From a virus (Duplodnaviria; Caudoviricetes), in the IMG/VR virus record IMGVR_UViG_3300022916_000084, positions 1 through 25,423 of that record: a DNA stretch of 25,423 nucleotides; one strand, 5' to 3'. The translations under genes were made by a program, and so were the position numbers. Each line of letters starts with the position of its first letter. Within the stretch, counting starts at the first letter, position 1. This document shows, in pieces, positions 10,711 to 23,043 of the stretch. Under the pieces are notes generated by a model. The model did no database searches and was not told the DNA's origin. It was given only the letters and a program-made list of their open reading frames with translations.

Positions 10711-10725
10711 AATTTTGTTTATATT

Positions 10726-10749
10726 AGGGGAGGGTTGTTAGCCCTCCCT
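10726..10749 (-). terminator. GC-rich hairpin after tail tube gene (weak terminator or mRNA stabiliser)
   Basis: GGGAGGG-CTAACAA-CCCTCCC stem; no good U-tract on the minus strand. Confidence 0.45.
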
Positions 10750-12915: not shown

Positions 12916-13535
12916 ATAATTGGTTTAGTATATTGGGCTATTGCTAATTTTGCTCTTTCAAATGCACTCCATCCTTCATCATTATTATAAGATACTGAAT
13001 ATAAACCAATCTTTTCAGATTTAACATTTCCACTAGCACCACCTCGATTAAACATATATATTCCACTAGCTAGAATTGTTGTCGCTAATACTATTGCTTC
13101 AGGTACTGCAACTGAATAACCCCATTTAGCAGTTATCTTATGATTTCCTCTACCTAATAACCAAGCATAACCTCTTAATGCTAATCGTCTTATAGGAGCT
13201 TTTAAGGCTGAAAAGTTAAATGGCATCTTACTATATCCTGCTGAATTAGTACCCTGAACAAACTCTGCAATTGTTGTAAAGCTATCTCCATAATAATTAT
13301 CACCTTTTTGTACAACAGTTATTTCAACACACTCATCAATAGGTAAAATATCCTTATCATTGCCATCAAATAATCTAGAACTAGCCTCTGAATCAGCTAT
13401 AAAGTTTCTTCCAGTTAATTGATCAATAACATCAACGGCTTGATTAATAGCATCATCTGCACTACCAACAGTAATAGTTTTATTCAAAAAAGTATTTATC
13501 TTAGCTTCATCAGTATATTCCTTAGTAATACTCAT
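12912..13535 (-). CDS. Head-tail adaptor/connector protein
   Basis: IDQLTGRNF, ITAKWGY..VPEAI..A, VKSEKIG.YSVSY motifs. Confidence 0.8.
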   Translation of the reverse strand: MSITKEYTDEAKINTFLNKTITVGSADDAINQAVDVIDQLTGRNFIADSEASSRLFDGNDKDILPIDECVEITVVQKGDNYYGDSFTTIAEFVQGTNSAGYSKMPFNFSALKAPIRRLALRGYAWLLGRGNHKITAKWGYSVAVPEAIVLATTILASGIYMFNRGGASGNVKSEKIGLYSVSYNNDEGWSAFERAKLAIAQYTKPII

Positions 13536-13909
13536 ATATTTTTATTAATATTTTTCCAATTATTATATTTTATATCAAATTTTCTATGGCATTTTTTACA
13601 TAAAGCTTTATAATCATTAGTATTTCTTCTGTATTTGTGATCTATATTAGCCCAATCTTCTGCTTGTTTTCCACAATCAATACATTTATGTTCTTTTGCC
13701 ATTCCTAATCTTCTTTCTATCCAGTGATGTATTGCTCCTTTCTTAGCATCATCACCTTTCCACATTCCATTTTTTTCATTAGCACAATGACCTTTAATTC
13801 CTTTATTCCAACCAGCTATTAATTTAATATTTTTAGGAGTTTTACCTTTCATAGCTTCACTTACTTTCTTTTTATGTTCTTCCGTTTGTTTGTATCCTTT
13901 AAAGGGCAT
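13532..13909 (-). CDS. NUMOD3 + HNH-like zinc-finger protein
   Basis: TEEHKKKVSEAMKG (NUMOD3-like); NGMWKGD, CxxC, WANIDH, LCxxCH. Confidence 0.7.
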   Translation of the reverse strand: MPFKGYKQTEEHKKKVSEAMKGKTPKNIKLIAGWNKGIKGHCANEKNGMWKGDDAKKGAIHHWIERRLGMAKEHKCIDCGKQAEDWANIDHKYRRNTNDYKALCKKCHRKFDIKYNNWKNINKNI

Positions 13910-14189
13910 TTATTTTGTTTTACGTTTGTAAGATCTTTTCTTTCTTTCAACAACTTCTTTCCTTTTAATATCAGTTGTTCTAACACCAGATACTAATACT
14001 AAGTTCTCATTATCTTGTTCTGTATGGCTTAATATTCTAGCACCAGTTTTCTTATTTTTGTAAATAAATTTATACATATTTTTATCCTTTCCAATTATTA
14101 TAATTTATATCAAATGCTCGGTGGCATTTAGTACATAAAGCTTTATAATCATTAGTATTTCTTCTGTATTTGTGATCTATATTAGCCCA
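13597..14189. repeat. 58-bp perfect direct repeat (13597-13654 and 14132-14189)
   Basis: tacataaagctttataatcattagtatttcttctgtatttgtgatctatattagccca present in both HNH genes. Confidence 0.9.
13910..14077 (-). CDS. Small basic hypothetical protein (55 aa), not in ORF track
   Basis: MYKFIYKNKKTGARILSHTEQ...RKKRSYKRKTK*; fills the gap between the two HNH genes with A-rich leader and abutting stop/start. Confidence 0.65.
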   Translation of the reverse strand: MYKFIYKNKKTGARILSHTEQDNENLVLVSGVRTTDIKRKEVVERKKRSYKRKTK

Positions 14190-14564
14190 TTCAATTTTTG
14201 CTTCTTCTCTAGTTTTACCACATTCTTCACATTGTTTAGGCTTTCCTTTTTCTCTATCTACCCATCTATGAAGTGCAAAATAACCTACTTTATCACCTTT
14301 CCACATTCCATTTCCTTTACCTTTAGTCTGAGTTATCTTTAATCCTTTATTCCACGGCTCTTTTCCTAAACGATATTTATTACCTTTCATTTTTTCCGAC
14401 AAATGTTTCTTAAATTCTTCACTATTAGTTTTAGTTCCAATCTTACCTTTATAAGAACATTCTCTAGAACAATACTTATGTCTATTAATCCAATCTTTTT
14501 GACTTTCATTTATTGGTTTTTTAAATTCCTTGTTACAATACAAACACCTTTTTACTTGTTTCAT
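14082..14564 (-). CDS. Zn-finger + NUMOD3 + HNH-like protein
   Basis: Likely start MKQVKRC at 14564; CxxC...YCSREC, SEEFKKHLSEKMKG, NGMWKGD, CxxC, WANIDH, LCxxCH. Confidence 0.7.
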   Translation of the reverse strand: MKQVKRCLYCNKEFKKPINESQKDWINRHKYCSRECSYKGKIGTKTNSEEFKKHLSEKMKGNKYRLGKEPWNKGLKITQTKGKGNGMWKGDKVGYFALHRWVDREKGKPKQCEECGKTREEAKIEWANIDHKYRRNTNDYKALCTKCHRAFDINYNNWKG

Positions 14565-14570
14565 ATAATT

Positions 14571-14619
14571 GCTTTCGAACCTTATTGGGTCTAGCGGTTC
14601 GAAATGCCGACCCAATAGG
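14571..14619 (-). promoter_or_regulatory. Structured RNA element (hairpin with pseudoknot or alternative pairing) between capsid stop and HNH start
   Basis: CCTATTGGGTC/GACCCAATAAGG stem; loop TTTCGAACC complementary to downstream GGTTCGAAA. Confidence 0.55.
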
Positions 14620-14657
14620 AACAATTAAATTATTGTTAAATATAAATACTATTACGC

Positions 14658-17699: not shown

Positions 17700-18914
17700 T
17701 TATTCTTTTGGTAAATCTGGTTCAGATCCTAATTCAGTTAAACCGAAAGGAACTAATATAACATCGCCTTCTGACAATGGATCTAATCCTTGTAAATCTC
17801 TCATCTCGTTAATAGTCATATAATGATGAGTTCCACCACTTTCTATTTTACTATTTACAGCTTCGGTATCTTCAGGAGTTGGATCTGGACTAATCAATAT
17901 TTCATTATCTTCTGTTAAGGTATTAAACTTAGCCACTAAATTCCTTATTAAAGGATAAACTGTGTTCTTAATGAACATTCTCTCAGTTTCTTCATAATTA
18001 CCCTTCTGAACGCCATCTGTGAGCCCTAGTAAGGTCTTAGGAACTTTATAAAGAACAAATACATCATTTCTATTAATATTCTTAGTTTCTAAATAACTTA
18101 GTTCAGTTGGAGTTAATGCTAACTTTTCATATTTACTATCACCACCTAAGAATAAAGGATTACCTGATTTCTTTGCTTCAGCATATTGTTCATTATATTT
18201 TTCTTTTAATTCTTCTAGTTGTTGTTTAGTCAAAGTATCTATCTTAAATGTAAATATACCTTCAACCTTTCCACCATTCTTTAAAACTTTATTTTGATAC
18301 TCGCATAATTGCTTTTCAGTATCAATACTATAAGCTCCCGGTCTTAATGGACTTAAACCTTGTAATGCACTTAAAGGATTAGGAGTTAAACTAAATATAA
18401 TTTCTTCTGGTTTATATTCTTTCTTTGCTAAGTTTGGATCACTAGATTTAAAACCAGCTATTGCAGTATTATCATCATTCATCTGAATAGTAATATAATC
18501 TGGTTGCAATAAATGGAATGATTGAATATCTCCAGATATATTATCTTCACCTTTTCTAATAACATAAACAAAAACACTACCTGTTAAATCTTTATAAGTT
18601 TGGTAGCGTTCAAAAAATTCTTCTTTAGTTTGATATTCATTAGGCTTATTTAAAACATTAACTAGATTACTATTTTCAACTTCTTTTTTAGTTTTCTTAT
18701 TAATCACTTTAAAATCTAAAAGTTCTGATGTCTTTTCTCCTCTAACCTTTACACAAGCGTAAACATACAAAGATGAAGCATAAACTCCTAATTGGCTAGT
18801 AGCAGTATTTAATATAGATTTCCAACCAGTAGCATTACTATATAAATCTTTAAATAAAACATTCATACTTCGTTTCTTAGTGAATGCTAACTTTATTCTA
18901 TTTCCTATATTCAT
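17700..18914 (-). CDS. Portal protein, HK97 family
   Basis: VYACV, LNKPNEYQT, GLSPL, KNGG...G, YKVP..LLG, MTINEMR...GL.P. Confidence 0.93.
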   Translation of the reverse strand: MNIGNRIKLAFTKKRSMNVLFKDLYSNATGWKSILNTATSQLGVYASSLYVYACVKVRGEKTSELLDFKVINKKTKKEVENSNLVNVLNKPNEYQTKEEFFERYQTYKDLTGSVFVYVIRKGEDNISGDIQSFHLLQPDYITIQMNDDNTAIAGFKSSDPNLAKKEYKPEEIIFSLTPNPLSALQGLSPLRPGAYSIDTEKQLCEYQNKVLKNGGKVEGIFTFKIDTLTKQQLEELKEKYNEQYAEAKKSGNPLFLGGDSKYEKLALTPTELSYLETKNINRNDVFVLYKVPKTLLGLTDGVQKGNYEETERMFIKNTVYPLIRNLVAKFNTLTEDNEILISPDPTPEDTEAVNSKIESGGTHHYMTINEMRDLQGLDPLSEGDVILVPFGLTELGSEPDLPKE

Positions 18915-18928
18915 AATAATTTTTTAAT

Positions 18929-18962
18929 AAAAAAGAGGACACCAAATAATATTGGCATCCTC
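18929..18962 (-). terminator. Intrinsic terminator 14 nt upstream of the portal start
   Basis: GAGGAUGCCAA-UAUUAU-UUGGUGUCCUC (11 bp including 2 G-U) followed by U6. Confidence 0.8.
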
Positions 18963-19085
18963 GAGTTCCTCGCAGGATATAAGGTTTTTTAACTTATTGA
19001 CGGGGGAGACTTGATATACTCCCCCTCCCCTAATCAATAAGCAAACAAAATGTATGAAAAGATATCCCACACAAAACTAACCCTA
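18929..19085 (-). ncRNA. Structured 5' leader / attenuator of the morphogenesis operon (candidate cis-regulatory RNA)
   Basis: P1 19062-19070 with 18972-18980; internal hairpin 18993-19041; antiterminator 18956-18979; terminator 18935-18962. Confidence 0.55.
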
Positions 19086-19090
19086 TTCTA

Positions 19091-19119
19091 AGTTTAACAT
19101 ATATTTATAAAAAAGTAAA
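19091..19119 (-). promoter_or_regulatory. Sigma70-type promoter with extended -10
   Basis: TTTACT - 17 bp - TAAACT with TGn directly before the -10; points at the portal gene. Confidence 0.65.
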
Positions 19120-19122
19120 GCC

Positions 19123-19293
19123 CTATAATTTATCATTATTAAAACTATGGCTCTTCTCAGTTTTCTCTTTCACTGTGGAAACATTGCAGTTATTAATAGT
19201 CAGAGATACTTCGATTTTTCCAAATCGAGTATTCTTAATCATTTCTCTAATTTTATCAAACCACCATCTTTCATTTGTGTTTAAATTTGGCAT
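19123..19293 (-). CDS. 56-aa protein resembling DUF2292/YezD, not in ORF track
   Basis: MPNLNTNERWWFDKIREMIKNTRFGKIEVSLTINNCNVSTVKEKTEKSHSF...; helix-FG-beta-beta-EK pattern (family call by eye). Confidence 0.55.
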   Translation of the reverse strand: MPNLNTNERWWFDKIREMIKNTRFGKIEVSLTINNCNVSTVKEKTEKSHSFNNDKL

Positions 19294-19304
19294 TTATTTT
19301 TATT

Positions 19305-19478
19305 TTATTTTTTATAAAATTCTTTCATTTCTTTGATCAAAAAAGCATTTACTTCATCTAAAGTTTTAAAATAATTAATATTATTTACTACAAAACCATT
19401 ATTTATTTTATATACATCAAAAGGTTGTCTATGAGTTGTTACACTTTCAAATGAAATTTTAAATCTAATTCTTTTCAT
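19305..19478 (-). CDS. 57-aa hypothetical protein, not in ORF track
   Basis: MKRIRFKISFESVTTHRQPFDVYKINNGFVV...FKTLDEVNAFLIKEMKEFYKK*; A-rich leader. Confidence 0.6.
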   Translation of the reverse strand: MKRIRFKISFESVTTHRQPFDVYKINNGFVVNNINYFKTLDEVNAFLIKEMKEFYKK

Positions 19479-19495
19479 AATGTTTATTTTATTAA

Positions 19496-20749
19496 TTAAG
19501 CAAATCCTATAAATCCTTTTGGTTGATGTTTTGTAAACTCACCATATCTGATAGCGTCCATTAAATGATTAAACTTATCTACTGGTACATTTGTTGGTTC
19601 TTTCTCTCTGTTAAGAGCCCATTTATATTCTTGATTTTCATTCTTTAAATTTTCACTATCATCAGTATAAAAAACTTTTCTACTTATTAAATAATCTATA
19701 CCAGCTCTTATACTATCTGCACCTTTAACACAAGGTTTAATATTATAATATCCATATCTCTTAATTTCTTCAATAGATTTAGGTTCAGCATTATCAGCAT
19801 AAATAACTGCGTCTTTTGGTATTCCTAAAGCATCTAACTTTTTACAAATCATAGGATTAGTTAAGCCAGTTTCATATAAAAGTTCTCTAGTATATATTCT
19901 ATCATTATGATCCTTCAATCCGACAAGTGCAGTTTCATCATTTGAAAATCCAAAGTCTAGTCCATAGTATTCATCATAAGGTAATTCTTCATATTTATTT
20001 GCAGGTATAGTTTTCCATTTTTTATATATTCTACCTCTCATTCCCTCACTGACTAAACCCTTTATCATATTATAATAATGTTCTGGATTCTTTGTTTTAT
20101 AGCTCTCATATCTAGCAATAGTCTTTACATTCAAATTCTTAATGTTCTGCAAATATGTTCCGTGTATATAAATTGTATCTTTCTTTTCTGATTCTTTTAA
20201 CTCAGCTTCATAATATCCATCTATGCCTGATGGTATTAGATTAAACCATCTTTTGATTATCCAATGATTTCTGAATGGAGGATTGAGTAATAATATAACT
20301 ATGATATCTGATTTAGTAGTTCTCAATGAATCATCTAACTGCATAAAATCTTCTTCTGCTACCTCATCAGCTTCTTCTATGATTACAACATTATAACTAG
20401 CCAATGATTTCAATTTAGATTTCTGATCTCCACTAGACTTTCTGAAACCAATACCATTTATCTTATTACCATTGAACTCGAATGATAAACTGTTTTCTCT
20501 TATCTTAACTAAATCTTCTATTTTACTTTCTTCAATTCTATCTCTAATTTCTTGATATATTGAGTTTCTAATATCACCTAGAACAAATCTCATTATTGCA
20601 CATCTAAAATAATTTGATGATAATAGTTTTAATAAAGCGAATTGACTAGCAGAATAAGAACGGCCTGAAGCTCTGCCACCCATACAAATAAAATATCTAG
20701 GACTTTTCGTGAATAGGGGTTTGTATATCTTGTTTGGTATTATCTTCAT
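19496..20749 (-). CDS. terL: Terminase large subunit, PBSX/Terminase_3 type
   Basis: Walker A-like GGRASGRS, Walker B IIEEADE, LLNPP; nuclease motifs GLDFGF, ADNAEP, NHLMDAIRY. Confidence 0.95.
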   Translation of the reverse strand: MKIIPNKIYKPLFTKSPRYFICMGGRASGRSYSASQFALLKLLSSNYFRCAIMRFVLGDIRNSIYQEIRDRIEESKIEDLVKIRENSLSFEFNGNKINGIGFRKSSGDQKSKLKSLASYNVVIIEEADEVAEEDFMQLDDSLRTTKSDIIVILLLNPPFRNHWIIKRWFNLIPSGIDGYYEAELKESEKKDTIYIHGTYLQNIKNLNVKTIARYESYKTKNPEHYYNMIKGLVSEGMRGRIYKKWKTIPANKYEELPYDEYYGLDFGFSNDETALVGLKDHNDRIYTRELLYETGLTNPMICKKLDALGIPKDAVIYADNAEPKSIEEIKRYGYYNIKPCVKGADSIRAGIDYLISRKVFYTDDSENLKNENQEYKWALNREKEPTNVPVDKFNHLMDAIRYGEFTKHQPKGFIGFA

Positions 20750-21813: not shown

Positions 21814-21839
21814 AACTTTTTTGTTTTATTTATAATACT

Positions 21840-21915
21840 ACTCTCCTCTACTACACCCCATACCCTTAAAATGCTCAGGATGGCTTAAAATAGCACTGGG
21901 GGAGAGTAGGGGAGT
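21840..21915 (-). other. GC-rich intergenic stem-loop
   Basis: Minus strand ACTCCCCTACT...AGTAGAGGAGAGT outer stem; inner CCCC/GGGG and AGTGCT/AGCATT. Confidence 0.5.
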
Positions 21916-21916
21916 G

Positions 21917-22645
21917 CTACTTAACTTGATTAAATAAACTAGCTTTACTATCTAATAGCTTCTCATAAGGAATACCATCAACCTCTTTATGAACTACTGT
22001 GCCGTCTGGTCCAAAGAATCTAGTACCCCACCAGTGATGGAAGAATGCTCTTTCATTAAAGAAACTGTACTCCTCACCCATACAATCTTTATATTCATTT
22101 TTTTTCCATCTTAAAAATTCAGCTCTGCCACCTAAAGAAAGGGTTTTGAAATAAAAGTGTTGTCCTACATCAAACTTAACTCCATCAAATTCTCGAGCTT
22201 CAAAGCTCATCTTATTATCCATAAACCAATCTTTTCTAAAAAACATTACTGCAGGTCGCATAGGTTTTAAAGGGCATCCTTCGGCTCCCAATAATCTTAT
22301 ATCTTTATCTGTATAATATTCAACTAATTTTTCATCCCAATCCTGTAATAAGATATGTGCATCAATATCCATAGCTAAAATATATTCTCCTTGAGCTTCT
22401 TGTATTCCTAGATCCATTCCTTTTCCGTGTCCTAGATTCTTTTCAGGCTTTATAATTTTTATATTAGCACCTTCTTTTTCATAAAAGACATAATCTTCTT
22501 CTTTTAATTCTCCTGAATTATCTACTATAACTATTTCTATATTTGTCGGATGAGTTGATTTTAATAAAGATGTATTAATTAATAAATCAGCAAAGTCTTT
22601 ACCCCACCAATTAACTGCTACGCAAGTTATAATATGTTTATTCAT
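21917..22645 (-). CDS. Glycosyltransferase family 2 (GT-A fold)
   Basis: EIVIVDNS, NLGHGKGMDLG, GEYILAMDID (DxD motif). Confidence 0.85.
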   Translation of the reverse strand: MNKHIITCVAVNWWGKDFADLLINTSLLKSTHPTNIEIVIVDNSGELKEEDYVFYEKEGANIKIIKPEKNLGHGKGMDLGIQEAQGEYILAMDIDAHILLQDWDEKLVEYYTDKDIRLLGAEGCPLKPMRPAVMFFRKDWFMDNKMSFEAREFDGVKFDVGQHFYFKTLSLGGRAEFLRWKKNEYKDCMGEEYSFFNERAFFHHWWGTRFFGPDGTVVHKEVDGIPYEKLLDSKASLFNQVK

Positions 22646-23043
22646 AAATTTTTTATTAATTTATCAAATTTAATATGACATTTCTTACATCTAATATCAT
22701 AATCATTAACATTTCTTTTATATTTATGATCTTTATTTGACCATTCTAGTCTTGATCCTTCATCCTTATTGTTTCCACAATCAACACATACTCCATCTTT
22801 TGCTTTACCTTTCTCTCTTACTATCCATAAATGCTTAACAGAATATGTTGCTTTATCACCTTTCCAACTTGCATTTTTACTACCTTTTCTGCCTATTTTT
22901 CTTTTATGTTCCTCAGTTAATTTTCTTCCTTTATGTATTTTTGATATCTTATCTTTGACTTCTTGACTATGTTTATGTCCTTTCCTAAAAACATTACCAA
23001 TGCCTTTATGTCCTTTTTTGAATGATGTTTTATTTTTGGACAT
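22642..23043 (-). CDS. NUMOD3 + HNH-like protein
   Basis: HSQEVKDKIS and LTEEHKRKIG repeats; NASWKGD, CxxC, EWSNKDH, CxxCH. Confidence 0.7.
   Translation of the reverse strand: MSKNKTSFKKGHKGIGNVFRKGHKHSQEVKDKISKIHKGRKLTEEHKRKIGRKGSKNASWKGDKATYSVKHLWIVREKGKAKDGVCVDCGNNKDEGSRLEWSNKDHKYKRNVNDYDIRCKKCHIKFDKLIKNL

Follow-up and report, generated by a model that had tools for sequence, protein, structure and literature searches.

Organization of the portal leader

The window, that is, the whole 25,423-nucleotide stretch of DNA analysed here, comes from a tailed phage with all of its genes on the minus strand. The same phage is also known as a 37-kb record, and a search for DNA homologs among annotated phages found none. 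Along the minus strand, the terminase large subunit gene terL (19496..20749, minus strand; Pfam Terminase_3, E 2.7e-32), which lies upstream of the leader, is followed by two small ORFs, a 208-nt gap and then the portal, head, connector and tail genes. The first small ORF, of 57 amino acids (19305-19478), lies between terL and the second; a different gene takes its place in L045, the locus with the one full homolog of the leader, which was reached through the small protein. The second ORF (19123..19293, minus strand) encodes a 56-aa DUF2292/YezD/OscA-like protein, a candidate RNA-binding antiterminator. The portal gene (17700..18914, minus strand; Pfam Phage_portal, E 9e-50) is the first gene of the head-tail operon that would be gated, with capsid, connector, tail tube and tape measure genes downstream on the same strand. 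Elsewhere in the window there are three homing-endonuclease-like ORFs (13532-14624 and 22642-23043), two of them between the capsid and head-tail adaptor genes, and a long G/C-rich intergenic hairpin without a U tract (21815-21925, minus strand, −28 kcal/mol).

The nearest relative on the portal tree, L134 (support 93), has a small protein 50% identical to that of the window. Since L134 comes from a Collierbacteria genome and four of the five genome matches carry a Patescibacteria-group label, the host of the phage is likely a member of the Patescibacteria.

An earlier note on this DNA had described a promoter and a leader with several helices in the gap, and all the sequences that it listed are present there. 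The predicted sigma-70-type, extended −10 promoter (19091..19119, minus strand) consists of a −35 box (19119-19114), a 17-nt spacer, a TG and a −10 box (19096-19091), with a predicted transcription start at about 19084-19086. Besides the TG, it matches the consensus at 8 of 12 positions (4/6 in each box) and was therefore not listed by our promoter scan, which needs 9/12. Both boxes, the TG and the spacer length are kept in L045, and a promoter-like site is found at the equivalent place in relatives.

The leader has a predicted folding energy of −56.7 kcal/mol (z = −4.8 against shuffled sequences, none of 200 being as stable). Its 5′ segment (19037..19086, minus strand), with the local hairpin H1 (19051-19073, pairing probability ~0.95), is near-invariant in comparison with L045 (49 of 52 columns identical), against 130/174 identical columns in the small gene and 140/245 at the portal start. 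H2, a long hairpin interrupted by a small asymmetric internal loop (18992..19042, minus strand), presents only 20 identical columns out of 41, its stems and internal loop being preserved by compensatory changes. The bulged hairpin placed at 18993-19041 by the earlier note is thus real, with slightly wider limits. No further homolog of this 5′ domain was found in viral contigs or genomes and the metagenome scan gave L045 alone; the case for H1 and H2 thus comes from two sequences, the window phage and L045 being the only ones in which the domain is seen. Twelve nucleotides of the H2 5′ arm (19023-19034) are exactly complementary to 10723-10734, the 3′ arm of another hairpin of this transcript, placed after the tail tube gene; none of 100 shuffles gave two such matches, for a pattern that was chosen post hoc and in which both runs are G/C. 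A 48-codon ORF spanning the leader (18924-19070) was rejected, as its frame is broken in L045 and it has no family match.

Different long hairpins occupy the 5′ leader position in other relatives, and at L110 the portal leader contains a tRNA-Leu(CAA) gene (1712-1786), downstream of the promoter and upstream of the hairpin. H1 and H2 lie outside the conserved switch, as lineage-specific passengers or accessory elements. Considering these other long hairpins and the tRNA gene, the terminated leader may be a passenger small RNA, or its DNA may be a protein-binding site; in the window phage this 150-nt product of termination may in addition function as a small RNA itself, given the tRNA gene at the same place in L110.

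Terminator, antiterminator hairpin and P1

The leader ends in an intrinsic terminator (18929..18962, minus strand; hairpin 18935-18962) of 11 pairs followed by U6. It is the strongest of the minus-strand U-tailed hairpins of the window, at −17.1 kcal/mol against −8.8 for the next, and its pairs are kept or compensated in L045. The antiterminator hairpin (18956..18979, minus strand) is 24 nt long, with a lower stem, a single G bulge and a short upper stem with its loop. Its 3′ strand is the 5′ arm of the terminator, so that 7 nt are shared. When nascent RNA was folded at nine lengths, the antiterminator had a probability of ~0.99 from the moment its 3′ strand was made until the last terminator bases appeared. 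The completed terminator is then predicted to win, by 5.3 kcal/mol in the window and 4.6 kcal/mol in L045.

No second copy of the hairpin-terminator was found in the whole phage (window and L152), where the scan gave one weak opposite-strand match inside terL, and no second strong U-tailed terminator was found downstream within the window. A likely replication initiator gene in L152, which belongs to the same phage, is preceded at 1900-2072 by a promoter and by a leader that carries a U tract and a strong nested hairpin; this element is attenuator-like, and by the scan its hairpin is not of the DUF2292 type.

The earlier note had added a third helix, P1, of 9 bp, as an anti-antiterminator closing a domain that holds a bulged hairpin, in the layout of riboswitches and of PyrR-controlled attenuators. 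The two strands of P1 are complementary in the window, but the helix is neither populated nor conserved. Its pairing probability is ≤0.02 at all nine transcript lengths, because its 5′ strand sits in H1; two of the nine pairs are U-U in L045, and forming it costs 2.8 kcal/mol in the terminated state of the window and 6.8 kcal/mol in L045. Moreover, 31 of 43 curated leaders, including those of the nearest portal relatives L134 and L055, have ≤35 nt before the hairpin and therefore no room for an aptamer or for P1. Since compensatory changes keep the pairs of H2 and of the terminator while two P1 pairs break, the comparison indicates selection on the structures of the terminator, the antiterminator and H2, and none on P1. 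The scan of the window against Rfam gave no match at the gathering score (the best weak match, ncr1575, reached 28.5 bits vs 60). We thus found neither a conserved aptamer closed by P1, as in a metabolite riboswitch, nor a conserved anti-antiterminator bound by a regulator, as in PyrR systems. The three-helix layout is not supported, the conserved sensing element being the antiterminator hairpin itself.

Relatives of the leader and of the small protein

Related loci were gathered by protein only: 41 via terL, the best 80 of 131 via portal and five from genomes. Collapsing identical upstream regions gave 75 loci; L045 was added and nine with too little upstream DNA were dropped, leaving 67. Among these 67 loci, a related small gene precedes portal in 42 and does not in 25. 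Loci with the gene share one layout, in which a promoter-like site and a short leader follow the gene and two hairpins come next, a small one and another that shares its 3′ strand. The small hairpin has a lower stem, a bulge or small internal loop, a 3-pair upper stem and an A-rich five-base loop.

A profile was trained on hand-curated hairpins, each locus being scored with itself and its look-alikes left out (leave-cluster-out). In these portal-selected loci a score of at least 8 was reached in 36 of the 42 regions with the gene, in one of the 25 without it and in 3% of 670 shuffles. The window hairpin scores 8.2, the best in its region and the fourth in the window. Additionally, in four near-complete phage records without the hairpin the small gene is absent anywhere (4/4, the positive control being detected). 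The exceptions are L084, with the small gene and no leader, and L060, with the hairpin and no gene found in a 13%-complete record. Two other tests gave little or no separation of the groups, the automatic choice of terminator often swallowing the small hairpin: a loose structural rule (30/41 with the gene, 12/25 without) and a training-free competition test (23/42 and 17/25). Hairpin and gene are adjacent, and adjacent elements can vanish in one deletion; corrected for the portal tree, the co-occurrence comes down to four independent well-supported pairs, of which 3.2 agree and 0.1 disagree (p = 0.25, underpowered).

Two-sided changes occur at 7 of 8 antiterminator pairs among 11 relatives and, in a second count, at 3/3 pairs, and in 40 of 43 curated leaders the downstream hairpin is favoured by 2 kcal/mol or more; these covariation and competition counts lean toward structure, because most of the hairpins were hand-curated for complementarity and overlap. 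The comparison between the window and L045 is free of this bias. Of what the earlier note had proposed to look for in homologs, conservation and covariation are thus seen for the antiterminator hairpin and not for P1. A U-rich tail follows the second hairpin in 32/43 leaders, and in several others this hairpin extends to the start codon or over it, which points to one sensor with two kinds of output.

A covariance model of the single-bulge subclass (R2), which was chosen after a broader mixed model (R1) and built without the window phage or L045, gave the window hairpin as its top match in the window (21.3 bits, E 0.0029; next match 11.3 bits). R2 also returned five of seven held-out hairpins as its top five rows, one alone at E <0.01. 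R1 missed the window hairpin and found 7/16 held-out hairpins.

Phages without the module place a similar promoter directly before portal, so the gate is not required by the group. In L017, L071, L085, L086, L093 and their kin, a −10-like site lies ~7-10 nt before the portal start codon, which suggests a leaderless portal mRNA. Further afield, in L028, L029, L030, L033 and L039, whose portals are unrelated, the stretch between terL and the head genes likewise holds a short hairpin touching a terminator, along with one small gene or two; several of these hairpins have three- or four-base loops like that of the window. Matches at L139, L142, L144 and L145 were discarded as chance occurrences of the pattern in unrelated coding DNA. 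An exact DnaA-box consensus lies near the portal promoter, in the 300 nt before portal, at 9 of 66 loci (L013, L025, L056, L060, L064, L074, L110, L130, L134) and in none of the control stretches within portal; it also occurs at L152:1907 and 4632.

Three homologs of the 56-aa protein are 77-81% identical to it. The ORF is real and DUF2292-like, as had been said, in that its profile aligns with bacterial DUF2292 in hhalign (probability 85, E 6e-6; phage family as a whole 94, E 9e-8), a comparison that is not fully independent since the bacterial set was picked with the phage profile and confirmed by Pfam (14/16 above the cut-off). Against Pfam DUF2292 (PF10055) itself, the protein reaches 15.2 bits, below the cut-off of 22, and 8 of the 42 phage small proteins match at E ≤0.05. 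The predicted fold is a helix and a beta-hairpin (pLDDT 85); a lone unit of this kind probably needs a partner copy for stability. In the family a single glycine following an aromatic residue is near-invariant, and the window protein is only mildly basic (net charge +3). Foldseek against the PDB and viral structures gave no match at E 0.001, Atlas matches stayed under 0.9, comparison of the small proteins with the PDB by sequence and fold gave no significant match, and none of the 42 small proteins has a CAT or PRD Pfam domain.

In two of three Patescibacteria-group DUF2292 loci that were read, a comparable hairpin lies over a terminator. Searching about one third of the genome collection with a DNA pattern that drew in part on these loci gave 121 loci. 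Overlap with a U-tailed terminator was seen in 64 of them, where 10.8 were expected, and in 20 (from 25 candidates) the gene just ahead exceeds the Pfam DUF2292 cut-off. Among genomes without an adjacent gene, DUF2292 is encoded elsewhere in 8/10 with hairpin and terminator (one by a short partial match) and in 1/10 whose match lacks the terminator (p = 0.005-0.02), in a set of 20 hand-picked genomes where lineage confounds. R2 found none of 10 bacterial hairpins, so the homology of phage and bacterial RNAs rests on architecture and not on scored sequence. The genes gated differ widely among loci, and we infer from this that a protein ligand fits better than a metabolite.

A proposed protein-held antiterminator and its alternatives

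Taken together, the sequence comparisons indicate that the attenuator is real and conserved and that it likely has a protein partner. Our preferred reading, which we hold to be somewhat better supported than not, is that the head-tail operon stays off until the adjacent DUF2292-like protein binds and holds the hairpin, as a RAT-like protein-stabilised antiterminator. A host-type promoter would fire into the leader and its transcripts would halt at about 18930, where those arriving from terL would also stop. As the hairpin is predicted to fold first and then to be displaced by the terminator, the default would be off, and the operon is likely off until the protein holds the hairpin. The small protein, encoded by the last gene behind terL, would build up and so set the timing; binding the hairpin as it forms, it would keep the 5′ arm of the terminator occupied. 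The terminator would then be disabled and the head-tail operon read, P1 having no part. Of the late-gene switch put forward by the earlier note, the gate before the head-tail operon and the DUF2292-like candidate are retained, now with conservation, covariation and co-occurrence behind them, and the riboswitch layout is dropped.

It is fairly unlikely, in our estimate, that the attenuator is real but has a fixed read-through set by a host factor, or by folding kinetics alone, the small protein being linked to it only as a passenger. A kinetic leak is plausible because the antiterminator keeps its probability of ~0.99 up to the synthesis of the last terminator bases; the tree-corrected co-occurrence is not significant, and 101 of the 121 bacterial matches lack an adjacent DUF2292 gene above the cut-off. 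Against a passenger, phages and unrelated bacterial phyla both have this family next to a hairpin of similar architecture, and the genomes with distant hairpins mostly encode DUF2292 elsewhere.

The small protein might instead be a processive antiterminator acting via RNA polymerase, either in the manner of gp39 or in that of lambda N, the hairpin then serving as its loading site. Polymerase-binding antiterminators of small size are found in phages (PMC3351154), and a long late operon lies downstream. The bases shared by hairpin and terminator are, however, enough by themselves to explain read-through, the window holds no other strong U-tailed terminator downstream, and in several relatives the output is occlusion of the start codon; we regard this explanation as improbable.

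Co-occurrence does not tell the sign of control, and the protein could bind the leader with the opposite effect (termination or a block of translation), for example as head-gene feedback. This is very improbable, because the element that is conserved and covaries cannot coexist with the terminator, which in 40 of the 43 curated leaders prevails with no help. We give scarcely any weight to P1 as the anti-antiterminator and aptamer-closing helix of a metabolite riboswitch or of a PyrR-like attenuator: the 9-nt complementarity with its modest cost in the window, the near-invariance of the 5′ 50 nt in L045 and the different 5′-end helix of L045 that competes for the 5′ strand of the hairpin speak for it, and the pairing probabilities, the broken pairs, the short leaders and the Rfam scan speak against it.

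Beyond the window, we find it nearly as likely as not that DUF2292/YezD/OscA proteins are stand-alone, sensorless RNA-binding antiterminators across bacterial phyla, the pair having been adopted by Patescibacteria phages as a late-gene switch with transcriptional or translational output. If the protein-held antiterminator is true, a widespread uncharacterised protein family would gain a function, and phage late genes could be controlled without a new sigma factor or a modified polymerase. The pair would be a new minimal protein-RNA switch of ~50 residues and 25 nt, easily tested and reused, and a possible explanation would be at hand for why oscA and yezD adjoin stress operons or respond with them.

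Comparison with known systems

Transcriptional riboswitches and PyrR-type attenuators place a mutually exclusive terminator and antiterminator in the 5′ leader. The window leader does the same; unlike them, it has no conserved anti-antiterminator or aptamer, and the predicted effect of the ligand is on, not off. Phage lambda times its genes through terminator read-through with N/nut and Q, which modify RNA polymerase, and HK022 put is reportedly another phage antitermination element that modifies the polymerase. Antitermination by gp39 of P23-45 likewise acts on RNA polymerase, in the text available from PMC3351154. The window system resembles these in timing phage genes by read-through and differs from them in that its hairpin would disable a single terminator, the one with which it overlaps.

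Like DUF2292/YezD/OscA (PF10055, NF033785), the small protein has the pattern of a helix, an aromatic-Gly and a beta-hairpin as well as the profile match, and bacterial members, like the phage gene, also lie just upstream of a hairpin-terminator; unlike bona fide DUF2292, it scores under the Pfam cut-off. For DUF2292, yezD and oscA, the portions of the literature at hand give no molecular function and speak only of unknown or stress-linked genes; the gene for a sulfate-binding protein is co-transcribed with oscA (PMC3596284). No description of the hairpin-protein pair was found in the main texts searched, largely of open-access papers, and nothing on a hairpin-DUF2292 pair was found in work on phage and CPR antitermination or on portal-terminase RNA motifs.

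The closest parallels are with BglG, SacY and LicT, whose RAT, in the available portions of PMC5393181, is a hairpin of 29-33 nt with two conserved internal loops that shares 6-10 nt with the terminator. As in the BglG/LicT-RAT systems (PMC5393181, same portions), the 3′ end of the window hairpin shares bases with an intrinsic terminator (here 7), termination would be the default, the apical loop is variable, the stem is interrupted and the putative binding unit has ~55 residues. The window hairpin is shorter than the RAT, ~24 nt, with one bulge or loop instead of two internal loops. Finally, unlike BglG and LicT, the window system would work without a CAT, PRD or sensor domain, none having been found, and its targets are virion genes.
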